Below are positions 271 to 63,028 of a stretch of DNA of 64,000 bases, one piece after another. Numbering within the stretch: position 1 is the stretch's first letter; every line of letters begins with the position of its first letter. The position numbers were made by a program, and so were the translations under genes. The DNA is from a virus (taxonomy: Duplodnaviria > Heunggongvirae > Uroviricota > Caudoviricetes): IMG/VR virus record IMGVR_UViG_3300031088_000776; one strand, given 5' to 3'. The notes below the pieces were generated by a model, which did no database searches, had not been told where the DNA came from, and saw only the letters and a program-made list of their open reading frames with translations.

Positions 271-438
271 GGTCGATTCTAAGCGTCTTGTAGCGTCAAA
301 TTTGGCTCTTAGGGTATAGTCATACAGTAGACGGCATTTACTGTAAAAACTGCAATTTTACTGCAAAAGACCACCTAGTTAGACCCGAGGCTATCACGGT
401 AAACTAGACGCGCTTAGTAGCGCAGTTTCTACTGCATC
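271..438 (+). repeat. family A composite repeat, copy A1 (degenerate 3' stem arm)
   Basis: Shares ggtcga..ctaagcgtc..tgtagc, ttagggtatagtcatacagtagac, the hairpin core gaccacctagtt and the ttagtagcgcagttt module with the copies at 15262, 29436, 52470 and 62826. Confidence 0.8.
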
Positions 439-467
439 AAGAAAATCGAAAAATATGCTGCTATAAT
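435..467 (+). promoter_or_regulatory. putative promoter with an extended -10 (TGcTATAAT at 459-467)
   Basis: The TGnTATAAT motif lies 31 bp upstream of the 498 start codon. The -35 element is weak. Confidence 0.3.
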
Positions 468-1721: not shown

Positions 1722-1848
1722 TTAACGCTCAATACCATCTTAACAGTCAGTAGTTAAAGTCTAACAGCAGCTAAGTGAAAAGATGAACAAATACCCATCT
1801 GAATTTAGCTGCTGTTAGACTGTCTGGTGCCGCTGCTTAGAGCGTATT
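1722..1848 (+). repeat. family B repeat, copy B1 (candidate structured RNA)
   Basis: Core caacagtcag ... gactgtctggtgccgctg with an internal perfect 16-bp inverted repeat, gtctaacagcagctaa (1759-1774) and ttagctgctgttagac (1805-1820). Homologous to the copies at 16403 and 55636. Confidence 0.75.
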
Positions 1849-1871
1849 ATTTTTAAGTATTTAACAAAGCT

Positions 1872-2999: not shown

Positions 3000-3392
3000 T
3001 TACAGATCCATTTCAGAATCAATAGTGTAGTAGACCTTCTTGATTCCTGCTTCTCGAAGTGAATTCTGGCATCGGTCGCAAGGCTTACTCATTACAGGGT
3101 CACCACACTTCGAAACGCGGGCCACATAGATAACAGCTCCATTAAGATCTGCGCCGCGGGACGCCTTGATAGCTGCTACTTCAGCATGGATTCCCGCTCC
3201 AGTCTTAGGATCAGTGATCTGACGAGGATTGTTAACTTTGTAATTAACTCCTTGAGAAATGACATTGCCATTCTTAACAATGATAGCGCCATGCTGATGG
3301 CGATACTTAGAAGTTTTTGCTAATTGTAAAGCACGGTCTAGTAGATCCTTAGTTCGCGCGGACTGCGGAGCTCGGAACTTCAAATTCGACAT
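3000..3392 (-). CDS. deoxycytidylate (dCMP) deaminase
   Basis: Carries the HAEVAAI and PCDRC zinc-binding motifs of the CMP/dCMP deaminase family. GAAAGG lies 11 nt upstream of the ATG that starts MSNLKF. The longer ORF reaching 3437 is possible. Confidence 0.85.
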   Translation of the reverse strand: MSNLKFRAPQSARTKDLLDRALQLAKTSKYRHQHGAIIVKNGNVISQGVNYKVNNPRQITDPKTGAGIHAEVAAIKASRGADLNGAVIYVARVSKCGDPVMSKPCDRCQNSLREAGIKKVYYTIDSEMDL

Positions 3393-3538: not shown

Positions 3539-3610
3539 GCTTTTGTGGGCTATAGGTAGGCCAGTTGACTCTAAATCAACCGTATGCGAGTTCGATTCTC
3601 GTCAAAAGCA
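3539..3610 (+). tRNA. tRNA with anticodon CUA (amber suppressor, tRNA-Sup)
   Basis: Hand-folded cloverleaf. Acceptor stem GCTTTTG/CAAAAGC, U8, D-stem GGCT/GGCC with A14 and G18G19. Anticodon stem GTTGA/TCAAC around the loop C-T-CTA-A-A, with U33 and A37. 5-nt variable loop. T-stem GCGAG/CTCGT with a TTCGATT loop. Discriminator A. No encoded CCA. Confidence 0.85.
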
Positions 3611-3868
3611 CTTTAAAAACTTTTTAAATACACTCTAAAACGAAAGGTGATTCAAAAATGACCTAGGTACTTTTGACTCATAATTCACTTTATTTCAAGC
3701 GGGCTTGCTTACTGCATGCTCGCTTATTCAGCATGCTCTGTCGATTAAGAATATAAGATATGTGCGAATGCATAGTCAAAAAACATCGCGTAAAAAGACT
3801 TAAACATATAAACGCACATCTAACTATACCAGAAAACAATCTTAATCAATAGTACAGGAGTACTAATC

Positions 3869-15242: not shown

Positions 15243-15261
15243 AACTGCTATTTTTTGATTT

Positions 15262-15433
15262 TCTTAGAGTAGCGAAAACTGCGCTACTAAGACCACCTAG
15301 TTTGCCGTGATAGGCTCGGGTCTAACTAGGTGGTCTTTTCATGTTTAGATGCAGTTTTAACGGAAAATACTGTTTACTGTATGACTATACCCTAGACAGT
15401 AAAACCGATGCTACAGGACGCTTAGGCTCGACC
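15262..15433 (-). repeat. family A composite repeat, copy A2 (reverse orientation; acts as a + strand terminator)
   Basis: ctgcgctactaa, then gaccacctagtt [21-nt loop] aactaggtggtc, then tttt, followed by the reverse complement of the ttagggtatagtcatacag module. Confidence 0.8.
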
Positions 15434-16160: not shown

Positions 16161-16997
16161 AAAGACTCTCCTATCAAGCTATTTAACTCTAATATCCTAT
16201 CACATGAGCATCCATCTCCTCTAACACTTTAAGAGTTTTTGAATAGGGCTAAAAGTACAGTTTTCTGTTGCTAACTACCTTACCTACCATGGACATTAAC
16301 TTGAGGGGTATAGGGACCTGCTAAGTGAACAGTGCCACCATACCCTCACTTACTCAGACTCAACCCTCTCGACACATCGCCACTCTATCCCTAGTCACGG
16401 TGCTCGCTCAACATACACTCAACAGTCAGTAAACCCGGTTCTCTCAGCAGTATAGCGAAGAGGTGAACAAATACTCACGGAAAACTAGCTACTGCGAGAC
16501 TGTCTGGTGTCGCTGTTTAGCGTATATGACAAATCGACTATTGAGATTACTGATGTAGCTTGGTTTCTATAATTATATATTAGGCTGTTAGTCGAAGGAA
16601 CCTCTGAATAGTCATCTGACGTAATGTATTCTTCTCTAGTTTCAATGAGGCCTGACGAACTAGATATTTTTGTTTAATTGGGTTCTAGCTTCATTAGAAC
16701 TGACGCTAACTACCTTACCTACCATAGACTTTAGCTTGAGGTGTATACGCGTGCATAATCACCTGCTCCCACCGCTCACTCAAATTTACTAAAAAGTTAT
16801 AAAGATGGCCATAAGAAAGTTACTGGCAAAATTACAATCGCTGACAACACGTTATAGAAAAATAAAAAATTGCGTTAAAGCGAAGAGTTTGATAATGTTT
16901 GTGAGTGATGACCTATATCACGCAAATCTAGTTATCACTTGGTAAAAGTTTTTTGATAGGATAATCAAGTGTCACACTGCACCAACAAGGGGGAACA
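16161..16997. other. 837-bp ORF-free, C-rich structured region; candidate large ncRNA
   Basis: No ORF of 60 aa or more on either strand. It holds the B2 repeat (16403-16530), two copies of ctaactaccttacctaccat.gac (16271, 16706) and the hairpin gaggggtatagg/ccataccctc. Confidence 0.35.
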
Positions 16998-28575: not shown

Positions 28576-29409
28576 ATGAATAGAATTTATAGGAATCTTG
28601 AAGAAATTGCACCTCATTTAGTTTCAGAGTGGGATATAGAACGCAATGGGAATAATCTTTACACTCATTTTTGGAATACTCGAGAAGACCCACCCCACTG
28701 GAAATGCAAAAAAGACCACCGGTGGACTATGCGATGGGATGCTAGAGTTGATCAAGGGCAAAATTGCCCCTATTGCTCTGGTAGAAGAATTATAGTCGGG
28801 GAGAACGATCTTCAGACTCGATTTCCAGAGATTTCTAAAGATTGGTCATTCGAATTAAACGAGCGAACGCCTATTGATTATCACCCCTATTCCCATAACA
28901 GAGTTTGGTGGAATTGTTCTGAAAATATTCACAAACCCTATTCACAGTTAATCTCTAAAAGAACTGGTCGTGGTACAGGTTGCCCTGAATGCTCTAAAGG
29001 TAGGGGCTCATCTAAAGGTGAATTTGAAGTTGGCCAACTTCTTGAAAGCATGGGGCTAAATTTTATACAGAATTCTAGAAAGATTATTCCACCTATGGAA
29101 TTAGACTTTTATATTTCTTCTCTTAATATTGGGATTGAATACAATGGAGAGTGGATGCATTCTAATCAAGCCTTGAAGCCTGATTCAAAGGATTCAAGTT
29201 TTCGTGATTATCACCTTAGGAAAAAGCGGCTTGCTAATTCTGAGAGTATTGATTTAGTTTTTGTGTGGGAGCATGATTGGACTGTACATAGAGATATAGT
29301 AAAAGAAGCTTTAATAGTGTTTTTCAAAACTGGGAAAATTTCAAAAATTCTTTCTCGTTTAGAGTCTTTTAAAGATGTTGATAAGGATTGCTGTTTATCG
29401 CGAGTCTAG
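28576..29409 (+). CDS. zinc-ribbon repeats plus a Vsr/DUF559-like endonuclease domain (homing-endonuclease-like), paralog 1
   Basis: WKCKKDHRW..CPYCSG, WNCSENIH..CPECSKG, then ELDFYISSLNIGIEYNGEWMHS..DLVFVWEHDW, which resembles the Vsr FVDGCFWH core. Confidence 0.6.
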   Translation: MNRIYRNLEEIAPHLVSEWDIERNGNNLYTHFWNTREDPPHWKCKKDHRWTMRWDARVDQGQNCPYCSGRRIIVGENDLQTRFPEISKDWSFELNERTPIDYHPYSHNRVWWNCSENIHKPYSQLISKRTGRGTGCPECSKGRGSSKGEFEVGQLLESMGLNFIQNSRKIIPPMELDFYISSLNIGIEYNGEWMHSNQALKPDSKDSSFRDYHLRKKRLANSESIDLVFVWEHDWTVHRDIVKEALIVFFKTGKISKILSRLESFKDVDKDCCLSRV

Positions 29410-29435
29410 ACTGTTTTTGTGTATGAATTTAGATC

Positions 29436-29582
29436 AAGTAAAAACTGCGCTACTAAGACCACCTAGTTTGCCGTGATAGGCTCGGGTCTAACTAGGTGGT
29501 CTTTTGCAGTATTTTCGCAGTTTTACAGTGAAATGCTGTCTACTGTATGACTATACCCTAAGCAGCATTTTTGATGCTATAG
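29436..29582 (-). repeat. family A composite repeat, copy A3 (reverse orientation; terminator-like on the + strand)
   Basis: aaaactgcgctactaa, hairpin core, tttt, then the reverse complement of the ttagggtatagtcatacagtagac module. Confidence 0.8.
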
Positions 29583-29705
29583 ACTGCTGGTAGTCGCTTT
29601 GAGAATGGCTCAAAAAATTTCTTTCAAGCGATCTTTTTCGGTTCGCAGTTGGTAAGATATCTTTGACAAAATAATAGATAAGTAAGAAAGCAAGGAGTAA
29701 TCCAA

Positions 29706-30815
29706 TTGTCAAAAAATATTTCTACTAACTCAGAGCGCCAAGAACAATTCAATCAGCTTATTAAGAGTATTAACAAGCATAAGACTTTCACGACTGAGTC
29801 TGGCGATAATGTAATCTCTAAATTAGGCGATAATCCTCGAGAGATTGAAGTTATCTCTTCAGGAAGTTTGGTGCTTGATAGTATCCTCGGTGGAGGTCTC
29901 CCTAAGGGGCGTATTGTTGAAATTTACGGCCCTGAGTCTTCAGGTAAGACTTCAGTTGCTCTTACTGTTGCTGGTAATGTCCAGGCAAATGGTGGTAACG
30001 CTGCCCTTATCGACCTTGAGAACGCACTTGACCCATCTTACGCTAAAAAACTTGGTGTAGATATTGAGAATCTTGCTGTTTCACAGCCGGATGACGCTGA
30101 GCAAGCCCTTGATCTTCTTGTTGCTTTATGCTCATCACAATTAGTTGATCTTGTGATTGTTGACTCTCTAGCAGCATTAACTCCAAGAGCTGTACTTGAT
30201 GGAACTGCAGAACAGCAGACTATTGGTCTTGTTGCTCGCCTTCTTTCAACAAACTTGAAGAAAATCATTTCTCTAGCCAATAAGAATGGTGTTACTGTCA
30301 TTCTTATTAACCAGATTCGTGATAAGATTGGCGGCTTCTCTCCAGTCGGTACTCCAGAAACGACAACTGGTGGTCGCGCAACCAAATTCTATGCTTCACA
30401 GCGCATCGACATTCGTCGCCGCGAGATTGTTAAAGAGGGCAAGAAAGAAATTGGTACCCTCGTCCGAATGAAAGTAGTAAAGAACAAGGTTGCTCCACCT
30501 TTCCGTGAAGGCTTCACTGTTCTAACTTTCAATCATGGAATTAACCGTCAGGCAGAGATGATTGAGGTCGGGCCAGAAGCTGGAGTCGTTGGTCGCCCTA
30601 ATAACCGAACTTATGTTGAAGTTGAGACTGGCGAGATTATTGCTAAGTCTAAGGCTGACGCTATTGCTCGACTTGAGAGTGACCCTGAAATGTTCGAAAG
30701 ACTCTCTAAGGCTCTCGCTGACGCATTAAAGAATAAAGACGCTAAGGTTGATGAAACTGAGGCGCCGAAAGAAAATGATGATGCTGAAGAAGTCGAATCT
30801 AAAGATGATGAGTAA
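29706..30815 (+). CDS. recA: RecA recombinase (bacterial type)
   Basis: GGGLPKGRIVEIYGPESSGKTS, IDLENALDP, VDLVIVDSLAALTP and INQIRDKIG...PETTTGG match the E. coli RecA core almost residue for residue. Acidic C-terminal tail. AAGGAG RBS plus TTG start. Confidence 0.9.
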   Translation: MSKNISTNSERQEQFNQLIKSINKHKTFTTESGDNVISKLGDNPREIEVISSGSLVLDSILGGGLPKGRIVEIYGPESSGKTSVALTVAGNVQANGGNAALIDLENALDPSYAKKLGVDIENLAVSQPDDAEQALDLLVALCSSQLVDLVIVDSLAALTPRAVLDGTAEQQTIGLVARLLSTNLKKIISLANKNGVTVILINQIRDKIGGFSPVGTPETTTGGRATKFYASQRIDIRRREIVKEGKKEIGTLVRMKVVKNKVAPPFREGFTVLTFNHGINRQAEMIEVGPEAGVVGRPNNRTYVEVETGEIIAKSKADAIARLESDPEMFERLSKALADALKNKDAKVDETEAPKENDDAEEVESKDDE

Positions 30816-30909: not shown

Positions 30910-32049
30910 ATGAATACAGTGAACTTTAAAGGTAATAATTATGATACAGATAAAATCGCTCGACTTTATATTGAAGAAAATCTAACTCTTCAGGAAACCT
31001 TTGAAAAACTCAAAGATGAGATAGACTTAAATATTAAAGAGTTCAAAAGCTTAGTAAACAAGACTGGGCTTAAAAAGAGTGACTCTAATAGACGCGAGTC
31101 GCAGGGGATAAAGAATCATAGGATTACTCAAAGAATTCTTAAAATTATAGAATCTTCAGAAAAGAAACTTAACTCTTTTTCTAGTAAGACTGCTTATGCG
31201 AGATATCTCCACTCAGAGAATCCCGAGTATTCAGTTAGACAATTCGAGAAGAGGATTGTTATAGAAGATAAGAAAGATTTTGTAAGATTTTTTGAAGTTT
31301 ATCCAGAGTTGAAAGATTATTTATATGATAAAGACTCTTTAGATATAAACTCAATAAGTATCTCTAGTCATTTAATTGTTGATTGGATCTGCGATTTGTC
31401 TCATATCTATCAGAGGTCATTTCAGGAAATGAATAGAGTAAAGAAATATTGTTACTACTGTAGTAATCAAAAAGTTCTTAAAGGTTTTAATGATCTTAAA
31501 TCTCAGTATCCTTTGATTGCCCTTGATTATTCATTTAGCAATGATTTAAAAGCTGATGAGATTTATTGTAAGTCTAGCAGAATAGTTGAGTGGGTTTGCC
31601 ATAAATGTAGCCTTAAATGGTCTCAAGCTCTTTGCAATAGAACTTCTTATAGCGAATCAGAATGTTCTAATTGCACTGATCGTATTTCGAAGCATGAGTC
31701 GAGAGTTTTAGAATTTGTTAAGACTTTCTATACTGGAGAGATACTGAGAAATAAAATGCCTTTACGTGAGGGGTCATCAAGATTTCAGATAGACATTCTT
31801 TTACCCGAACTTAAACTTGGTTTTGAGGTTCAGGACTTCGCTACACACTCTAAGACTTCAGAAGATGAGGTTTCTAGATTTAAGGGTGTTACTGGGCTAA
31901 AGAAAGGTCCTAATTATCATGAGAATAAGCGGAGGCTTGCTAAAGAGCAATTAGATGTGACTTTGATAGATCTTTGGCAGGATGAGATTGAATCTGGAGA
32001 TTTTGAAGAAGTTATTTTAGAAGCTATTCGTGAAGTCAAGGGCGCTTAA
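30910..32049 (+). CDS. zinc-ribbon repeats plus a Vsr-like endonuclease-like domain, paralog 2 (divergent C-terminus)
   Basis: WICDLSH..CYYCSNQKVLKGFNDL and WVCHKCSLKW..CSNCTD, then QIDILLPELKLGFEVQD. Confidence 0.5.
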   Translation: MNTVNFKGNNYDTDKIARLYIEENLTLQETFEKLKDEIDLNIKEFKSLVNKTGLKKSDSNRRESQGIKNHRITQRILKIIESSEKKLNSFSSKTAYARYLHSENPEYSVRQFEKRIVIEDKKDFVRFFEVYPELKDYLYDKDSLDINSISISSHLIVDWICDLSHIYQRSFQEMNRVKKYCYYCSNQKVLKGFNDLKSQYPLIALDYSFSNDLKADEIYCKSSRIVEWVCHKCSLKWSQALCNRTSYSESECSNCTDRISKHESRVLEFVKTFYTGEILRNKMPLREGSSRFQIDILLPELKLGFEVQDFATHSKTSEDEVSRFKGVTGLKKGPNYHENKRRLAKEQLDVTLIDLWQDEIESGDFEEVILEAIREVKGA

Positions 32050-33450: not shown

Positions 33451-33470
33451 AATAATTTTCCTCCAAAAAT

Positions 33471-33514
33471 AAAAACACCTGGTTGCTTGGTAAAATGTAA
33501 CCAGGTGTTTTTTA
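33471..33514 (+). terminator. intrinsic terminator
   Basis: aaaaacacctggtt ... aaccaggtgtttttt. Confidence 0.85.
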
Positions 33515-33540
33515 GTCTTTTGTAAGGAGTTTTATAATCA

Positions 33541-49705: not shown

Positions 49706-50216
49706 TATTCTAAGGATTCTTATTTTTAGGTGTAGACGGTTATTGTAGTGCTTTTAATTTCTGTCTACATCTAAAATATTCCTCAAAAAATAAACATAAC
49801 ATTTACTCTATAGGCTGATAGAAAGAGTCAAGCAGTTTAGATAAATACACATGAAAACCTATTGAAATGATAAGGCAAAAATATTCTAAAAATTTTAATA
49901 GATGACCCAAAAACTACAGAATAAGAACATGAATGAATGTCTCTTGCACGATTAGCAGGGGGCTGATTTTAGTCTCAACTGATAAAAAGTCTATTAGAAT
50001 AATAAAATTTTAGAATACCCAAAAACAACCTACTTCACCTTCTAATTAAGGTCTACGTTGGTACAATACAAATCAATAGCAAAAGATAGCTCTAAAAATA
50101 GAATTAGCAAAATTCTTTAATAGAACAAAGGTGTAGCGTTAGTCAAAAGATTAAAGCAGCTATCAAAGCATAAACAAAAACTTGAATAAATCATAAAAGA
50201 TACAGGAGAAAAATCC

Positions 50217-52388
50217 ATGCAGGAAACACAGTACAAATGGTACGAGGCTCCACAGGGAGTCAAGCAAAGCGACTACACCAGCCTAAATGCTCAATTGAAT
50301 CTTGTTGGCGAAAATAAGATCAACTTCGAAGCAGACAAAGAGGCTGCACGTCAATACATCATCAACGAGATCAACCACAACATGGTCTACTTCCTAAATC
50401 TTCGTGAAAAGCTAGAGCACCTAGTTGACAACGGATACTATGAAGAAGAAACCATCGAGCAGTACACTTTCGACTTCGTTAAAAGCTTGTTCAAGAGAGC
50501 CTACAATAAAGAATACCGCTTCCAATCATTCATGGGAGCATACAAATTCTATACTTCATACGCTATGAAGACCTTCGACGGTAAGCGCTACCTAGAACGC
50601 TACGAAGATCGCGTCACTATGACTGCTCTTTATCTAGCGTGCGGTGACGAAGCCCTTGCTGAAAGTATTCTTGATGAAATTATGAGCGGTCGCTTCCAGC
50701 CAGCTACACCTACCTTCTTAAACGCAGGTAAAGCACAGCGTGGAGAGCTAGTTTCATGCTTCCTACTTCGAGTTGAAGACAACATGGAGTCAATCTCTCG
50801 AGCAGTTAACTCTTCACTACAGCTATCAAAGCGCGGCGGCGGTGTAGCATTAAACCTTACTAACCTCCGCGGAAAAGGTGCTCCAATCAAAATGATTGAG
50901 AACCAATCTTCAGGTGTTGTCCCAGTAATGAAAATGCTTGAAGATGCTTTCAGCTACGCAAACCAGCTAGGAGCTCGACAGGGCGCAGGAGCTGCTTACT
51001 TAAATGTCCACCACCCAGACATTAATCAATTCCTAGATACTAAGCGCGAGAATGCTGACGAGAAAATCCGAATTAAGACTCTATCTCTAGGTGTTGTTAT
51101 CCCAGATATCACCTTCGAGCTCTCAAAGCGTAATGAAGATATGTACCTATTCTCTCCATACGATGTTGAGAAAGTCTACGGCGTTCCAATGTCAGACATT
51201 TCCATCACTGAAAAGTACTACGAAATGGTTGATGATCCACGAATCACTAAGACTAAGACTAACGCTCGCGAACTATTCAAGACTCTTGCTGAAATTCAGT
51301 TCGAATCAGGTTACCCATACCTAATGTTCGAAGATACTGTAAACCGTGAAAACCCAATTCAAGGTCGAATCTCTATGAGCAACCTATGCTCAGAAATTCT
51401 GCAAGTTTCAGAGCCGTCAACTTACAAGGAAAATCTAGACTACGACACAATCGGCAAAGATATTTCTTGCAACCTCGGATCAATGAACATTGCTATGGCT
51501 TTCGACGGCCCAGACTTCGAAAAGACTATTGACGTTGCTGTTAATGCCCTATCAACAGTTTCTGATCTATCCAACATTGCATCAGTACCATCAATTGAAT
51601 CAGGCAACAACCGCTCACACGCTATCGGTCTTGGACAAATGAATCTCCACGGATTCCTTGCTCGTGAAGAAATCATGTACGACTCTAAAGAGGCTGTAGA
51701 CTTTACCAACATCTACTTCTACTCAGTTCTTTACCACGCTCTAAAAGCATCAAACAAAATCGCTATCAAACGCGGTGAAACTTTCGACAACTTCGAAAAT
51801 TCTAAATATGCTAACGGTGAAGCACTACGTAAGTACATTGAAAAAGACTGGTCCACTCCGGAAACAGAAAAGGTTAAAGAACTATTCACTAGAACTTCAA
51901 TCTACATTCCGACTCCAGAGGACTGGGTGAAGCTTTCCGAAAGTATTCAAAAACACGGTATCTACAACCAGAACTTGCTTGCAGTACCGCCTACCGGTTC
52001 GATCAGCTACATCAACAACTCTACTTCGAGTATCCACCCTGTAGCAGCACCGATTGAAATTAGAAAGGAAGGCAAGCTAGGCAGAGTTTACTATCCAGCT
52101 CCATTCATGAACAACGATAACATCAAGTACTACAAAGATGCTTACATGATTGGTTATGAAGCGATCATCGACGTCTATGCTGCTGCAACGCAACATACGG
52201 ATCAAGGACTAAGCTTGACCTTATTCTTCATGAGTGACGTTAGCACTCGAGATATTAATAAGGCTCAGATTCTAGCTTGGCGTAAAGGGATAAAGACACT
52301 GTATTACATTCGACTACGCCAGAAAGCCTTGGAGGGTACAGAGTCTGAAGGAAACGCTGCAGAGTTCTGCGAATCTTGCATGCTTTAA
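50217..52388 (+). CDS. nrdE: ribonucleoside-diphosphate reductase alpha subunit, class Ib (NrdE-like)
   Basis: N-terminal YTSLNAQLN, the catalytic region SNLCSEI, and C-terminal cysteines CESC. Confidence 0.9.
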
Positions 52389-52404
52389 TAATTAAATAAT
52401 AGTT

Positions 52405-52457
52405 AATAGGGACACGATTGAAATATTACAAATTCATCGTGTCCCTATTGCTCTTTT
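52405..52457 (+). terminator. intrinsic terminator
   Basis: aatagggacacgat ... atcgtgtccctatt, then gctctttt. Confidence 0.8.
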
Positions 52458-52491
52458 AGTAAGTATTTTTAGTCTTAGTAGCGCTGTTTTT
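52451..52491. repeat. left 41-bp terminal inverted repeat of the 52451-54067 cassette
   Basis: ctcttttagtaagtatttttagtcttagtagcgctgttttt. Its reverse complement occurs at 54027-54067 with 41 of 41 identities. Confidence 0.85.
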
Positions 52492-52640
52492 AGACAGTAT
52501 TTTCTTCCTTAGGGTATAGTCATACAGTAGACAGTATTTCACTGCAAAACTGCATAGAAACAGTAAAAGACCACCTAGTTTGCCGTGATATTCTCGGGTC
52601 TAACTAGGTGGTCTTAGTAGCGCAGTTTCTACTCGATCTA
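52470..52640 (+). repeat. family A composite repeat, copy A4 (loop inverted relative to A1-A3)
   Basis: ttagggtatagtcatacagtagacag ... gaccacctagtt tgccgtgatattctcgggtct aactaggtggtc ttagtagcgcagttt. Confidence 0.8.
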
Positions 52641-52724
52641 GAAAACAGCAAAATTATCAATCTAAAATAACTTTCAGTACAATCTTGATAAATACTATAT
52701 GATTACGAAAGAAAGTTTCAAATA

Positions 52725-53786
52725 ATGTCTAAGAAAGTCCTAAGGGGAGTCACAGATCTATCCTCACAAAAACCAGACGTAGCAAAAGATTGGGATTATT
52801 CTAAAAATTCTAAAACTCCAGGTGAAGTGTCTCAATACTCTAATAAGACAGCATGGTGGGTTTGCAATGAGCTTCACTCATGGGAGTCTGTTATTGCGAA
52901 TAGATCTAAAGGTTCGGGATGCCCCGAATGCGCTAAAACTACTCGCGGTGAAAATATTAGTAAAGCTAAAAATATTAGTAATAAGCCATTATATGGTCAT
53001 AAAGAGCTTAAGAAAGAATTCTGCATAGTTAATTCTTACAATCCATACATTAAAGGAAATTCATATCAATCAAAAGTTCTATGGATATGCTCGGAATGTT
53101 CAAAAAGTTGGGTTGCTAAGATTAGCAAAAGAATTAAAGGTAGTGGTTGCCCAAATTGCTGGAAGTTAAACAAAGGTAAAGAATATGTTAAATCAATAGT
53201 TAGATCTAAAGGTTCACTATTCTACACTAATCCAGAAGTTCAAGAATATTGGGACTACGAGAAGAATAAGTTACATAAAATTTATCCAGAAAAGTTTTCA
53301 GCAGGGTCTCACTCTTACGCCTATTGGTTTTGCCCAAAATGCAAGCATTCATGGAGGGCAATAATAAAAAGTGTCGCAATCAAGGGTTCAAGATGTTCTA
53401 AGTGCATGAGTAAAACATCTAAAGGGGAAGAAGAATTATTTAATTTCGTTAGAAGTCTTTATAAAGACGCAATCAAGAATGATAGGAAAATTGTCAATCC
53501 TAAAGAATTAGATATTTATATTCCTAGCAAGAAAGTAGCAATAGAGTACAACGGTGAATATTGGCACTCTAATGAAGTTATGTCTGTTAGAATAAACAGA
53601 ATTTCTGAAGAATATCACAGAGAGAAGATACAGATTTGTGAGGCATATGGAATTGATTTACTTTTTGTCTGGGAGGATGATTGGCTTAGGAATAAAGACA
53701 CAGTTAAAGAATTAATTATAAGATACTTTGATAATAGACAAAAGAACAGCATATTTAAAAGACTTATTTCTAATAGAGATCTATAG
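52725..53786 (+). CDS. zinc-ribbon repeats (at least five) plus a Vsr/DUF559-like endonuclease domain, paralog 3
   Basis: WWVCNELHSW..GSGCPECAK, WICSECSKSW..GSGCPNCWK and WFCPKCKHSW..GSRCSKCMSK. The C-terminus is ELDIYIPSKKVAIEYNGEYWHS..LLFVWEDDW. Confidence 0.6.
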   Translation: MSKKVLRGVTDLSSQKPDVAKDWDYSKNSKTPGEVSQYSNKTAWWVCNELHSWESVIANRSKGSGCPECAKTTRGENISKAKNISNKPLYGHKELKKEFCIVNSYNPYIKGNSYQSKVLWICSECSKSWVAKISKRIKGSGCPNCWKLNKGKEYVKSIVRSKGSLFYTNPEVQEYWDYEKNKLHKIYPEKFSAGSHSYAYWFCPKCKHSWRAIIKSVAIKGSRCSKCMSKTSKGEEELFNFVRSLYKDAIKNDRKIVNPKELDIYIPSKKVAIEYNGEYWHSNEVMSVRINRISEEYHREKIQICEAYGIDLLFVWEDDWLRNKDTVKELIIRYFDNRQKNSIFKRLISNRDL

Positions 53787-53790
53787 AGGT

Positions 53791-54000
53791 ATGATGGAGT
53801 CAGCGAGAATTGGTTTTATATATACTATAAGACATTTTGAGAAAATTCTTTATGTAAGTCAAACTGTCAATCCTGATAAAAGAATTGATTCTCATAAGAG
53901 AAAGCTTTATCGTGGAGACCATAAGCTTGAGTCTCTTCAACATCTTTTTATCGTATTAAGAATTCATAAAGAGTATATTCTGCTAAAAATCCTAGATTGA
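53791..54000 (+). CDS. small GIY-YIG nuclease-like protein (UPF0213/YhbQ-like)
   Basis: MMESARIGFIYTIRHFEKILYVSQTVNPDKRIDSHKRKLYRG parallels E. coli YhbQ ([39 protein letters not shown]). It lies inside the inverted-repeat-bounded cassette. Confidence 0.45.
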   Translation: MMESARIGFIYTIRHFEKILYVSQTVNPDKRIDSHKRKLYRGDHKLESLQHLFIVLRIHKEYILLKILD

Positions 54001-54026
54001 TAATTTTGCTTTTTTAGAATTCGAGT

Positions 54027-54067
54027 AAAAACAGCGCTACTAAGACTAAAAATACTTACTAAAAGAG
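54027..54067. repeat. right 41-bp terminal inverted repeat
   Basis: aaaaacagcgctactaagactaaaaatacttactaaaagag, the exact reverse complement of 52451-52491. Confidence 0.85.
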
Positions 54068-54117
54068 TAATAGTAAACTTGGTAAAATTACAAAAACTGA
54101 AGTTGTAAGGAGCCATT

Positions 54118-55608
54118 TTGCCAAGCAAAACAATAGAAAGAATCTGTTCTTTAGGTCATAAATATCCAAGTTATAAAAATATGAGATTAAGATGTCCCTA
54201 TTGTAACAATAAGAAACTTCTTAAAGGTTTTAATGACCTAAAGACTAAAAGACCAGACTTGGTTTTAGATTGGGGCAACAATAACAAAAAGAGTGTTAAG
54301 GATATAACTATAACATCAGATTATGAGGCCGAGTGGATTTGTCATAAATGCAAACATTGTTGGGTAACTGCTGTTCGCAATAGATCAAACAATAACAATT
54401 GCGTCTCCTGTGAAGACAAAAATTCAGGTAAAGAAAATAGTTTTCATTCTAATAGAGAAAATTTTAAGAAGCTATGGAGCGAGAAGTTAAATGGAGAGCT
54501 ACCTGTATATTTACCTAAATCCTCTTTAAGCATTTACTGGTTCACATGCGGTCAATTTGATCATGAATACCAAGCAACTGTGAAGTCTACTTTTAAAACA
54601 AAATTCAATTGCCAAGTCTGTTCTGGGAATGTTTTTAAAGTGGGGGTTAACGACGCTGAGAGTCTCTATCCTGAGTTAATTAGCAAATGGAGTTCAAGAA
54701 ATGACTTGAAACTTTCTGAAGTAAACCCAAAGTCAACTAAAGAGTATCTTTGGGTTTGTCAAGAGAACCATGAGTCTTTTAAAACTGTTCCAAGAGTGCT
54801 TTCTAAGCCTAATTGCAAGTATTGTCTAAAGAAGGATATAGAACTAGAGGATTCGATCTTATCTACGCATCCAGAATTAGCAAAGAATTGGTCTTCATTA
54901 AATTCTAAAAAATCTTCAGAAATTTCTTCAGGCTCAGGGTATACTGCAGTTTGGAATTGCACTGAGGAGGATCATTCGTTTAAGAGGATTGTCCATAGGT
55001 ATATCAGCAGTAACAACTCTTGCCCTATCTGTAAAGGACATAAACTTCTTAAAGGGTTTAACGATGTTTCTACTGTCTGGCCACAACTGAATGATTTACT
55101 TTCAGAAAGAAATGAGAATCAAAATATTCTTTCTGAAATAACTTTTAAGTTCTCTACCAAGCTTTACTGGACTTGTAAAAGGGGTCATGAAACTTATTGT
55201 TCAGCATATCAAAGAGCTAACTTTTCATGTGGTAAATGCACTAGCAGTAAGGGTGAAGACGAGTTAAATGACTTCGTTAACAGCCTTAAGTTAGATTCTA
55301 TTCAAGGCTGCAAAACCTTAATTAATCCTTTTGAAATAGATATCTATATTCCAAAATTGAATATTGCTTTAGAGTTTAATGGAGACTATTGGCATTCAGA
55401 TGAGATTGTTGCTGGTAAGAGTCGTTTTAAGACTGCTGAAGAATACCACTCATATAAAAAGCTTCTTTGTCGGGAAAAGAATATTGACCTGTACTTCATC
55501 TGGGAGAGCGATTGGATAGATAATCAAAGTGAAGTCAAAAGCTCTTTGAAAAGACTTCTCGAAGGAAATAAATCGGACCCTATTCTAGAAAAGTTATCGA
55601 ACTCTTAA
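54118..55608 (+). CDS. zinc-ribbon repeats (at least seven) plus a Vsr/DUF559-like endonuclease domain, paralog 4
   Basis: Multiple W.C..H/CxxC ribbons. The C-terminus is EIDIYIPKLNIALEFNGDYWHS..DLYFIWESDW. AAGGAG RBS plus TTG start. Confidence 0.6.
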   Translation: MPSKTIERICSLGHKYPSYKNMRLRCPYCNNKKLLKGFNDLKTKRPDLVLDWGNNNKKSVKDITITSDYEAEWICHKCKHCWVTAVRNRSNNNNCVSCEDKNSGKENSFHSNRENFKKLWSEKLNGELPVYLPKSSLSIYWFTCGQFDHEYQATVKSTFKTKFNCQVCSGNVFKVGVNDAESLYPELISKWSSRNDLKLSEVNPKSTKEYLWVCQENHESFKTVPRVLSKPNCKYCLKKDIELEDSILSTHPELAKNWSSLNSKKSSEISSGSGYTAVWNCTEEDHSFKRIVHRYISSNNSCPICKGHKLLKGFNDVSTVWPQLNDLLSERNENQNILSEITFKFSTKLYWTCKRGHETYCSAYQRANFSCGKCTSSKGEDELNDFVNSLKLDSIQGCKTLINPFEIDIYIPKLNIALEFNGDYWHSDEIVAGKSRFKTAEEYHSYKKLLCREKNIDLYFIWESDWIDNQSEVKSSLKRLLEGNKSDPILEKLSNS

Positions 55609-55635
55609 ATAGCGTTTAATATTGACTGAGAAATC

Positions 55636-55750
55636 ATGCTCAACAGTCAGTAAACCGGGTTCTCTCAGTAGCATAGCGAAGAGACGAACAAATACCAACC
55701 TAAAACTAGCTACTGCGAGACTGTCTGGTGCCGCTGTTTAGATCATATTA
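55636..55750 (+). repeat. family B repeat, copy B3
   Basis: caacagtcagtaaaccgggttctctcagtagcatagcgaag ... aaaactagctactgcgagactgtctggtgccgctgtttag. Confidence 0.75.
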
Positions 55751-55782
55751 AAAATTTCACTAAAGTCAACCTAAAAGATAAT

Positions 55783-55828
55783 AACCCGCGAAGCGCATTC
55801 TATGGAGGAGTATAGCGCTTCGCGGGTT
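55783..55828. terminator. bidirectional GC-rich terminator
   Basis: aacccgcgaagcgc ... gcgcttcgcgggtt, with an A/T run on both sides. Confidence 0.8.
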
Positions 55829-55856
55829 AAAGTTTATTTAATTTTATTTAAGAATT

Positions 55857-57062
55857 TTACTGTTCATTAAGATGAGCAATAATTCTATCAGCTTCAGAAT
55901 AAGTTAGATTCTTGCGGCTGTCAACTTCACGACCAAGGAAGTCAGAGAGCCATTTTAGTGCTCTTGATTTCTCCCAATTGTAAATTCCAATAAATTCAAG
56001 CCCTGCGAAGATTTCTCCACGCTGGTAGTTAGTCATATTGTAAACAGTTGAACCGCTATTAGCTTTAGAGGTCATTGAGTCTGATGATTCAGTAGTTTTA
56101 GTATCATTGTCAACACTTGTTGAAACACTTTCAGAATCTTTCGTAGAATCCTTAACTGAATCTTCACTCTTAGTGGAGTAGATACCTGACTTCAACGGCG
56201 CATTAAGAACATCAATGATTTCATATTTGTCTGTGCGGCCCTTCTGAGCATCACAGTCTGTAGGAATACTGACTACGTTCGCAGGATGAATCTTTAGCAA
56301 GAATACGTTTCCATCGCGAGAGTGACCCTGAGCAAAGTTGAGAGTCGAGAAGTGCAAGCCTGGTCCACACCCTTGAGCGGGATCTGCAGTAACGTCAGAA
56401 CGCTTCATGAAGACTGTAGTCCCTACCTCATTTGGAATTTGCGAATTAACGTAATCAGTAACTTCACCGTTCTTTAGGACTGAAGAGTTACCTGACCAAC
56501 CTGAGTAGTGAACACCATCTTTAATGACTGGGCATCCCTTGTAAGCTAGGAAGTAACCATCATCAGTAATCGTGAATCCACCGTGAGCGGCCTGCATAGA
56601 AGCTAACCATGAGTACAGTTGATCACGGACGAATGGGTCAGTGTTCTGCTGTAAGTTTTCAACAAACTTAGCGAATGATGACCAAATCTTCTCGTCTCGA
56701 GGTGAAGAGTCGCTCTTGAACATTCTCGTAATGTGTGCGGAAAGGTGCTCGTTTAACTTCTCTCCATTGTAATATACTGAAGCGTCTTTAGTAGTAAAGA
56801 TACCGTTAGTAGGAGACTTCAATGCTTTGCGAACTCGAGCCTTAGTGTCGATTAGCTCAATAATCTCAGTCGCAATTCTGCTTTCTTCCTCGGGGGATTC
56901 GGCCTTATTGTATTCAGAGAATAATTCGCGAGCGCTACTGAATCTTTCTGAACCTTCTGAAACAGAGGCCCAACGCTGAACATTGTCTTCATCTTTAAAG
57001 AGTAGCTTAAGGGTTTTCTTCCCTGAAGTGTCTTTAGTAAAATTTGCTGTAACGATTTCCAT
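55857..57062 (-). CDS. hypothetical protein (401 aa)
   Basis: ORF with a Ser/Thr/Asp-rich middle segment and no confident motif. Confidence 0.5.
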   Translation of the reverse strand: MEIVTANFTKDTSGKKTLKLLFKDEDNVQRWASVSEGSERFSSARELFSEYNKAESPEEESRIATEIIELIDTKARVRKALKSPTNGIFTTKDASVYYNGEKLNEHLSAHITRMFKSDSSPRDEKIWSSFAKFVENLQQNTDPFVRDQLYSWLASMQAAHGGFTITDDGYFLAYKGCPVIKDGVHYSGWSGNSSVLKNGEVTDYVNSQIPNEVGTTVFMKRSDVTADPAQGCGPGLHFSTLNFAQGHSRDGNVFLLKIHPANVVSIPTDCDAQKGRTDKYEIIDVLNAPLKSGIYSTKSEDSVKDSTKDSESVSTSVDNDTKTTESSDSMTSKANSGSTVYNMTNYQRGEIFAGLEFIGIYNWEKSRALKWLSDFLGREVDSRKNLTYSEADRIIAHLNEQ

Positions 57063-62825: not shown

Positions 62826-62990
62826 AAGGTTGAGCCTAAGCGGTCTATAGAGTCGAAAATACTGCTTAGGGTATAGTCATACAGTAGACAGCATTTTCCG
62901 TTAAAACTGTCATTTTACAGCAAAAGACCACCTAGTTTGCCGTGATAGGCTCGGGTCTAACTAGGTGGTCTTAGTAGCGCAGTTTTCGCT
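62826..62990 (+). repeat. family A composite repeat, copy A5 (loop inverted; terminator-like on the - strand)
   Basis: gagcctaagcggtctatagagtc ... ttagggtatagtcatacagtagacag ... gaccacctagtt tgccgtgataggctcgggtct aactaggtggtc ttagtagcgcagttttcgctac. Confidence 0.8.
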
Positions 62991-63028
62991 ACATTATAGA
63001 ATCAGTATTTTCAACTTCTATTCAGTCT

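Follow-up and report, generated by a model that had tools for sequence, protein, structure and literature searches.

Analysis of a 64,000-nt window of the virus record IMGVR_UViG_3300031088_000776 suggested that the 1.6-kb cassette bounded by inverted repeats downstream of the ribonucleotide reductase gene nrdE consists of two selfish homing-endonuclease genes, HEG1 and a GIY-YIG stump, lying between the nrdE terminator and a third such gene, HEG2. In this reading, to which we give a probability of roughly two in three, the arms of the inverted repeat are a two-layer repeat and not a mobility apparatus. Judged by homology, the locus is of a known type, that of free-standing Hef-like/EDxHD homing endonucleases beside a ribonucleotide reductase gene. 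The main value of the analysis is a correction: the transposon-looking 41-bp perfect inverted repeat would have arisen secondarily, from dispersed hairpin repeats together with a local inverted duplication. The dispersed repeat in question, family A, is ~170 nt long and has five intergenic copies in the window, in both orientations; copy A4 lies in the cassette. The features of the locus are given below, where L063 is a 2099-bp contig from a different sample.

50217-52388, plus strand: nrdE, encoding the large subunit of class Ib ribonucleotide reductase (Pfam Ribonuc_red_lgC, E = 1.4e-157, as well as RNR_N and lgN)
52404-52458, plus strand: nrdE intrinsic terminator, a ~15-bp stem (3' half to ~52448-52450) followed by the U-tract GCTCTTTT
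52445-52492, plus strand: left outer arm, 27 nt of nrdE-terminator tail and a 21-nt family-A tail copy (52472-52492)
52493-52610, plus strand: A4 core, which holds the TTAGGGTATAGTCATACAGTA block, invariant in family A, and a perfect hairpin of 14 bp (52567-52615); no right-arm counterpart
52611-52631, plus strand: 21-nt family-A tail GTCTTAGTAGCGCAGTTTCTA, a direct repeat (19/21) of 52472-52492
52632-52712, plus strand: inner left arm, the family-A downstream module and upstream region of the 353-aa gene, ~85% identical to 54025-53943 with small indels
52725-53786, plus strand: HEG1, a predicted free-standing Hef-like/EDxHD homing endonuclease of 353 aa, carrying three DUF4379 treble-clef zinc modules and, C-terminally (~aa 226-353), a nuclease domain of the Vsr fold
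53794-54000, plus strand: truncated GIY-YIG homing-endonuclease remnant of 68-69 codons (alternative start 53791)
53943-54025, minus strand: inner right arm, the inverted family-A downstream module, overlapping the 3' end of the truncated GIY-YIG ORF and collinear with the right end of L063
54026-54073, minus strand: right outer arm, the 21-nt A tail and then the inverted 27-nt nrdE-terminator tail, with no hairpin partner here
54118-55608, plus strand: HEG2, a 496-aa paralog with four DUF4379 modules and the same nuclease domain as HEG1

Three stretches of HEG1 matched DUF4379 (Pfam E = 2.8e-40), with a weak CapR match besides, and the protein matched PHROG 559 and 3339 ('HNH endonuclease', 'homing endonuclease') with E = 4e-39 and 5e-32. 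For the C-terminal ~125 residues the Pfam matches were sub-threshold only (REase_MTES_1575, Vsr). Searching PDB with a profile of 27 homologous nuclease domains gave a single match, 3r3p_A (the catalytic domain of I-Bth0305I), at E = 2.6e-5; the single HEG1 sequence matched 3r3p at E = 0.14. An AlphaFold2 model of HEG1 residues ~223-353 reached a pLDDT of 87.3 and a pTM of 0.82, and its Foldseek ranking in PDB was headed by 3r3p, followed by E. coli Vsr (1cw0, 1vsr) and the DUF559 protein 3hrl, at probabilities of 0.99-1.0. The fold match to 3r3p had a probability of 1.0, a target TM of 0.73 and 23-24% identity. Alignment of the HEG1 motif ELD...AIEYNGEYWHS to Asp196, Asn208 and His213 of I-Bth0305I revealed D263 (ELD), E274 and N276 (IEYNG) and H281 (WHS) at catalytic positions. 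D263, E274 and H281 are invariant in the 27 homologs and conserved in all four paralogs of the window. The 27 domains have eight invariant columns (S, E, E, D, E, G, H, K), and D, E, HS, YH and K are conserved in 4/4 window paralogs. The catalytic residues in I-Bth0305I numbering are Glu, Asp196, Asn208/His64, His213 and Asp222, and Hef-type enzymes were assigned to the Vsr-like family by Taylor et al. (PMC3239194). Homologs occur in 452 phage records, several of them annotated in GenBank as 'Hef-like homing endonuclease' (e.g. Bacillus AR9/PBS1 and Klebsiella phages), and HEG1 is only 26-35% identical to annotated phage homologs. A large unrecognised EDxHD/Vsr homing-endonuclease outgroup with CapR/DUF4379-like modules and thousands of unannotated relatives was described in 2025 (PMC12350094). 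Sequence homology and the structural model support HEG1 as a predicted member of the Hef-like/EDxHD (Vsr-fold) homing-endonuclease family, with zinc-module repeats for DNA binding. The first-pass annotation had read the 353-aa protein as zinc ribbons plus a Vsr/DUF559-like fold, and this was correct in view of the three DUF4379 modules, the profile match to 3r3p and the Foldseek matches to Vsr and DUF559 structures.

The stop codon of HEG1 is TAG, and the sole tRNA of the window (3539-3611, plus strand) has the anticodon CTA of an amber suppressor. This tRNA was identified as tRNA-Pyl by ARAGORN and scored 62.6 bits with the Rfam tRNA model. It could serve TAG suppression or recoding in part of the genome.

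Four paralogs of this nuclease family were found in the window, two after nrdE and two flanking recA. The two genes at recA are as follows.

28576-29409, plus strand: 277-aa paralog upstream of recA; next comes family-A copy A3 (29430-29588, minus strand), its tail toward the gene
30910-32049, plus strand: 379-aa divergent paralog directly downstream of recA (29706-30815)

HEG2 is 30% identical to HEG1 (E = 2e-39), which bears out the earlier claim of a second paralog just outside the right repeat; it is also collinear with the single post-nrdE gene of the relative L059 (34% identity, E = 6e-75). The recA/UvsX-like gene at 29706-30815 (Pfam RecA, E = 3.5e-91) lies between the 277-aa and 379-aa DUF4379-EDxHD paralogs, and A3 is placed between the 277-aa paralog and recA. 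The GC content of the HEG region is 30-36%, compared with 40-48% for nrdE and rIIB. In T4, mobE is found at nrdA/nrdB and segA at uvsX (PMC2988022), and free-standing homing endonucleases are enriched near ribonucleotide reductase genes (PMC10448857). The neighbourhoods of nrdE and recA are classical sites of free-standing homing endonucleases.

Relatives of the locus were found through NrdE homologs of 72-76% identity, with the shared gene order AAA+ ATPase, RecG-like helicase, ~200-aa protein and nrdE. In L057-L060 and L072-L074 nrdE is syntenic, and the number of DUF4379 genes behind it was as follows.

No DUF4379 gene after nrdE: L057 and L072
One DUF4379 gene after nrdE: L058, L059/L060 and L074
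Two DUF4379 genes after nrdE: L073 and the window

L073 and L074 (runs SRR25400089 and SRR25400071) have an identical NrdE and ~99% identical DNA. Comparison of L073:10165-12020 with L074:10165-10199 revealed a clean 1821-bp indel that contains one 641-aa DUF4379 gene, directly after another such gene. The edges of this indel carry no inverted repeat, just a short, imperfect direct repeat that stems from the paralogous 3' ends. The two contigs make up a natural filled/empty pair for the zinc-module/EDxHD branch. Sporadic presence and absence beside nrdE was shown at this locus for the DUF4379-EDxHD family, among seven relatives, and not for HEG1 itself. The comparison with related genomes that had been proposed as a check came out in favour of the gene family, with 0, 1 or 2 post-nrdE genes; above 76% NrdE identity it gave no genome without the exact 1.6-kb cassette. 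Megablast of 50000-57000 against GenBank phages and an IMG/VR scan with the rIIB-like neighbour revealed no close relative. The idea of a homing-endonuclease insertion at the ribonucleotide reductase locus was supported by the Hef-like/EDxHD family membership, the 0/1/2 occupancy, the L073/L074 indel and the paralogs at recA and nrdE.

The post-nrdE slot of L057 (L057:12200-13800) carries a GC-rich, minus-strand 278-aa gene with no Pfam hit and then an RNA ligase gene; the slot therefore takes other foreign DNA besides endonuclease genes.

The small ORF behind HEG1 matched Pfam GIY-YIG at E = 7.7e-4 and 20.1 bits, under the 22.6-bit cutoff, over profile positions 2-41 of 78. In L063 an ortholog of HEG1 (68% amino acid and 75% DNA identity) precedes a 274-aa GIY-YIG gene whose C-terminal half is rich in cysteine, and the small ORF is 54% identical to residues 1-67 of that protein. 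Because the ORF matches only the first ~67 residues of the L063 gene, with DNA homology stopping at ~53939 and ~700 nt of the gene missing in the window, it was taken as a truncated remnant. The GIY-YIG catalytic domain (~90-100 aa) with its DNA-binding region is incomplete in it, as only those first residues are left. The presence of a GIY-YIG ORF, noticed by the first-pass annotation, was confirmed by the marginal Pfam match; its description as a YhbQ-like minigene was not, as the ORF is the stump of a gene that is intact in L063. The L063 GIY-YIG protein has no relative but itself in a set of 5.8 billion proteins. At its left end L063 carries an A tail and the downstream module. Its right end has the downstream module again, the tail and the initial portion of the A hairpin, all as reverse complement. 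Since both ends carry inverted family-A sequence, comparison of the two sequences places the two-gene cassette between inverted family-A copies before the lineages of L063 and the window split, which fits the ~80-87% identity of the inner arms in the window. The 47/48 outer segment must be much younger than the inner arms.

It could be argued that the DUF4379-Vsr-fold proteins are domesticated nucleases that work for the phage, e.g. in excluding competitors or degrading host DNA, and do not actively home. The four paralogs within 64 kb are intact and have conserved catalytic residues, and marker exclusion by free-standing endonucleases is known from T-even phages (PMC2988022). Against this, the sporadic distribution in close relatives, including the one-gene indel, the position beside recA and nrdE and the decayed GIY-YIG partner next door are each the usual sign of selfish turnover, and we consider domestication highly improbable.

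The 41-mer CTCTTTTAGTAAGTATTTTTAGTCTTAGTAGCGCTGTTTTT has two sites in the window, 52451-52491 (plus) and 54027-54067 (minus), with no mismatch at either, and no match in 100 shuffles of the sequence. The perfect 41-bp inverted repeat reported by the first-pass annotation was therefore confirmed, and the repeat finder extended it to 52445-52492 / 54026-54073, with 47 of the 48 positions complementary. An inner inverted pair is also present at 52611-52664 / 53993-54046 (87%). Gapped alignment revealed that the right arm (54073-53943) is collinear with the left one (52445-52712) except for a left-only block of 139 nt (52491-52629). These 139 nt, which the right arm lacks, equal the 118-nt A4 core plus one 21-nt tail copy. 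The true arm size is ~130 nt; the outer 48 nt are near-perfect, and farther in the identity falls to ~85%, with small indels. The mismatches number 1/48 in the outer arm and 11/76 in the inner arm. The 21-nt tail is common to both arms and to the A copies at 15273, 29439 and 62968. A4 scored 174.6 bits with the family-A covariance model, and its hairpin has a fold z of -4.4; the earlier report of a family-A copy inside the cassette held in both the repeat comparison and the covariance model.

The nrdE terminator follows straight after the nrdE stop, with an RNA fold of -24.1 kcal/mol (z = -6.0). The outer 27 nt of the left arm are the last stem pairs (CTAT) and the U-tract of this terminator, with no family-A sequence, and the right-hand copy of the terminator tail has no partner and no significant structure (z = +0.55). 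A hairpin and T-run are found directly 3' of nrdE in the relatives as well. As the left copy overlaps a strong terminator, the right copy is unstructured and the relatives share the post-nrdE hairpin, the left terminator tail was taken as native and the right arm as its inverted copy.

The position of the cassette directly after nrdE was borne out by the Pfam match of that gene. The statement that nrdF or nrdI would normally follow fails for this lineage, as no homolog of nrdF, nrdI or nrdH was found in the window or in the loci of six relatives, HEG-free loci included. Displacement of nrdF or nrdI by the cassette was rejected, because HEG-free relatives are without nrdF or nrdI there too. An intron or intein context was likewise rejected, given an intact nrdE with a terminator of its own. 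NrdE shares 72-74% identity with the enzymes of Micrococcaceae/Actinomycetaceae, and the GC content of the window is only 38%.

In the reading that we prefer, HEG1 is predicted to read DNA with its three treble-clef zinc modules and to cut it with its Vsr-fold EDxHD domain. By analogy with T4 mobE/seg and Hef, the cut would fall in or near a conserved gene of a HEG-free related genome, and HEG1 with its flanking DNA would be copied in through double-strand-break repair. The GIY-YIG ORF would be the dead stump of a second homing endonuclease, as comparison with L063 indicates. In the old layer (~80-87% identity) the cassette would have lain between two inverted family-A hairpin modules, as it still does in L063. 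In the young layer (47/48) the right copy would have lost its hairpin core and gained, in inverted orientation, a copy of 27 nt of the nrdE-terminator tail. As the most likely cause of the young layer, the right-hand palindrome may have been broken or deleted and the end repaired by priming on the tail of the left copy, inverted, through fold-back or template switching. Such a repair would have copied the 27-nt terminator tail and then rejoined.

A single rearrangement that yields both odd junctions could not be reconstructed. An exact 12-nt direct repeat, TAGACAGTATTT, is present at 52491-52502 and 52537-52548, inside and beside A4, and suggests that replication slippage contributed to the odd left junction. 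An assembly artefact was rejected as the source of the arms, since they are shorter than the final MEGAHIT k-mer (141; contig k141_1324127) and presumably than the reads too, and two assemblies agree across the overlaps. No alternative junction from inversion or excision was seen in the Logan contigs of the same phage (L001, L062), which end inside the repeats.

Several points weigh against this account. The nuclease action, target site and homing of HEG1 and HEG2 are predictions from sequence and analogy, and the equivalent of Asp222 of I-Bth0305I falls in an insertion of HEG1 where it is not confidently placed. The mobility of the HEG1 cassette is deduced from the behaviour of its family, with no genome above 76% NrdE identity that is without the cassette or has it at another position. 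The gap in identity between outer and inner arms depends on few positions. The fold-back would need a pre-existing left junction of the 27 nt and the tail, and the scenario accounts neither for this junction nor for the extra left tail copy. Family A may be a terminator, a promoter, a small RNA or a selfish repeat; a promoter-like site, TTATCA-18-TACAAT, lies inside 52632-52712, and such sites are not enriched over shuffles (13 found, 12.8 expected).

The first-pass annotation had also proposed an insertion like a miniature inverted-repeat transposable element (MITE). The 1.6-kb unit would then be transposon- or MITE-like, with 41-48-bp terminal inverted repeats recognised by a transposase, possibly the PD-(D/E)XK nuclease itself. 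A near-perfect repeat does bound a coding cassette (47/48 arms, exact 41-mer), and the orthologous cassette of L063 has inverted ends too. However, the arm flanks CATCGTGTCC and TAAACTTGGT form no direct repeat, so that the target-site duplication which was to be looked for is absent, and no transposase family was matched in Pfam or PHROGs. The 41-mer is found nowhere else in the window, and the unit is 1.6 kb long and coding, unlike a many-copy non-coding MITE. The nrdE terminator takes its last stem pairs and its U-tract from the left arm, and the inner arm belongs to a dispersed family shared with unrelated loci. The flanking inverted repeat is absent at 57 other homolog loci, and the one-gene indel between L073 and L074, demonstrated for the gene family, took place without one. 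A unit defined by its repeats is thus very unlikely, with arms that are terminator tail plus dispersed A module. As to whether the arms are terminator modules shared with unrelated loci, the sharing holds for their inner family-A part; the 41-mer as a whole is confined to these two sites in the window.

The arms could also act in RNA, where a read-through transcript of nrdE would pair over long range into a ~48-bp duplex and be processed or silenced, e.g. by RNase III, limiting endonuclease expression. The arms share the strand of the genes, so that a transcript would contain them as perfectly complementary stretches, and T4 homing endonucleases are held down by terminators and RNA processing (PMC2988022). 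The left arm is nevertheless preceded by a strong terminator, whose U-tract forms the first bases of the arm. The arms lie 1.5 kb apart, and the outer arm is without covariation or conservation in L063, whose ends are A hairpins. We consider this the least probable of the explanations.

The five family-A copies and their hairpin palindromes are located as follows.

271-455, plus strand: A1
15249-15433, minus strand: A2
29430-29588, minus strand: A3
52485-52655, plus strand: A4
62828-63011, plus strand: A5
367-407, 15289-15337, 29455-29503, 52567-52615 and 62924-62972: A hairpin palindromes

Each copy contains the invariant block TTAGGGTATAGTCATACAGTA, a perfect 14-bp hairpin (AAGACCACCTAGTT-loop-AACTAGGTGGTCTT) and the 21-nt tail (GTCTTAGTAGCGCAGTTT..), and then a loosely conserved stretch. 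The 14-bp stem is perfect in all five copies and is followed by TCTTTTGC on one strand. In A2, A3, A5 and the right end of L063 the hairpin and TCTTTTGC face the 3' end of a converging gene, an arrangement that fits a putative intrinsic terminator. Hexamers resembling a -10 element recur downstream of the A tail, and family A takes no uniform orientation to the genes around it. Each copy was also tested for a 5' direct repeat of its tail, the trace expected of a site-specific insertion; such a repeat was found in A4 only, with marginal signals for A1 and A2 (p ~0.04-0.05) and nothing for A3 and A5.

Even with E relaxed to <= 1, Rfam gave no family for A4. IMG/VR was scanned with three family-A motifs and gave no match, and the covariance model revealed no copy in any nrdE-syntenic relative. 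The scan of GTDB genomes gave two single matches, within chance expectation. Matches to 18 nt of the tail at eight loci of JGI metagenomes were dismissed as chance, since L065 and L068 match the 21-nt tail only and the other six have no family-A sequence (blastn). An extra covariance-model match at 33461-33529 proved to be an ordinary terminator.

The ~21-nt loop of the A hairpin occurs in both orientations with respect to the remainder of the element, the loop of A4 and A5 being the exact reverse complement of that of A2/A3. It looks as if the 49-nt palindrome flips via recombination between its perfect 14-bp stem arms.

Analysis of the window also revealed family B, of ~117 nt, with three copies, all on the plus strand, which are 73-87% identical and have a weak predicted fold (z = -1.8).

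1760-1849, plus strand: family-B copy
16418-16534, plus strand: B2
55639-55755, plus strand: B3, directly after HEG2

Each B copy lies 1-3 kb to the right of an A copy, and the A...B pairs bracket short gene sets, namely a YpsA-SLOG protein with a Tpt1 RNA 2'-phosphotransferase, a 189-aa minus-strand ORF, and the two endonuclease genes. The A and B repeats are possibly regulatory or recombination modules of very large phages. A 48-nt direct repeat of 88% identity (16265-16312 and 16700-16747, spacing 435 nt) flanks B2.

The repeats could have played a larger part than in the preferred reading, which this alternative partly overlaps. Family A, and possibly family B, would be portable boundary cassettes of promoter or terminator type, similar to PeSLs, and recombination between them, not homing, would have placed and reshaped the cassette. 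Such a role would agree with the five intergenic A copies in both orientations, the hairpin and T-run of three copies that point toward the 3' end of a converging gene, the A copies that bracket the L063 cassette, the three A...B pairs around short accessory gene sets and the PeSL precedent (PMC2839356, PMC4122927). The A copies at this locus are inverted, however, so that their recombination would turn the segment around and neither remove nor introduce it. No promoter has been demonstrated in the A modules, and they take no consistent orientation to neighbouring genes. Relatives with post-nrdE HEGs have no A module, and the L073/L074 indel needs none. On balance this alternative appears unlikely.

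In a further possibility, which we consider doubtful and more so than the last, the family-A modules act as recombination handles or landing pads, with, for example, the 21-nt tail or the extruded hairpin as a possible cut site of the Vsr-fold enzymes. An inverted A pair with endonuclease cargo would then be a new composite mobile unit, able if real to reach any A copy in the giant phage genome. Room for such a unit is left by the A copies at either end of the L063 cassette, by A3, which directly adjoins the 277-aa paralog, and by the two breakpoints of the rearrangement in the window, which coincide exactly with the outer edge of the 21-nt tail, inside the hairpin-stem position.

Comparison with known systems again concerns the preferred reading, that of homing-endonuclease genes beside nrdE. 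Hef and Hef-like enzymes are free-standing homing endonucleases of T4-related and other phages. Going by the title of Sandegren et al. 2005 (cited in PMC2988022 and PMC3239194), hef reportedly replaces mobE. The position of mobE is between nrdA and nrdB (PMC2988022). Hef, which is set beside HEG1 by description only, resembles it as a free-standing Vsr-like nuclease gene next to the gene for the ribonucleotide reductase large subunit; the present locus differs in its ~0.7-Mb metagenomic genome, in having no adjacent nrdB/nrdF and in its copies stacked in tandem. I-Bth0305I (3r3p) is the best and only significant PDB profile match of HEG1 and its best fold match, with the motif ...D-x12-E-x-N-G-x-x-W-H-S aligned to Asp196, Asn208 and His213. 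It is the prototype of the EDxHD homing-endonuclease family and resides in a phage recA gene (PMC3239194), and here two paralogs flank recA. I-Bth0305I is intron-encoded with an N-terminal NUMOD/helix-turn-helix, whereas the proteins of the window are free-standing with three to four DUF4379 zinc modules.

The architecture of the CapR/DUF4379 and EDxHD/Vsr enzymes (PMC12350094) is identical, with three to five ~60-aa modules and then a ~100-aa EDxHD/Vsr-like domain. HEG1 (three DUF4379 modules and a weak CapR match) and HEG2 (four) fall within this range of module numbers. The published examples lie in group I/II introns of jumbo-phage RNA-polymerase genes, whereas the genes of the window are intergenic and free-standing. 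The locus adds free-standing members beside nrdE and recA, in a ~0.7-Mb phage-like genome, to this recently recognised zinc-module/EDxHD branch. T4 mobE, segA and other free-standing HNH/GIY-YIG genes (PMC2988022) share the intergenic site by nrd and uvsX/recA-type genes, and the 'intronless homing' of T4 from a possibly distant cleavage site may follow the same mobility logic (PMC2988022). Decayed endonuclease copies are found in the T4 set and here; the nuclease folds differ from those of mobE and segA, with only the truncated remnant here being GIY-YIG. The PeSL cassettes of T4-like phages (PMC2839356, PMC4122927) resemble family A as short dispersed intergenic stem-loop repeats that edge variable genes. 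Family A differs in its length of ~170 nt, its highly conserved non-hairpin block and its inverted, not direct, copies at this locus; the likeness is an analogy only, with a putative promoter.

The window is part of a 697,643-bp metagenomic contig (ENA ERZ27247443 k141_1324127), and related contigs of 670,635 and 436,870 bp were found. Its neighbour genes include rIIA- and rIIB-like genes, a RecA/UvsX-like gene and a gene for an Alt-like ADP-ribosyltransferase. From its rIIA/rIIB-, UvsX- and Alt-like genes the source genome is phage-like and was treated as that of a very large phage. In the window contig, L057 and L059, phage hallmarks are mixed with bacterial-looking genes, among them those for a penicillin-binding protein with PASTA domains, signal peptidase S26, a DNA pol III delta-like protein, NlpC/P60 and a SpoU methylase. 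A 150-nt direct repeat of 72% identity (2504-2653 and 3000-3149, spacing 496 nt) is located just upstream of the CTA tRNA.

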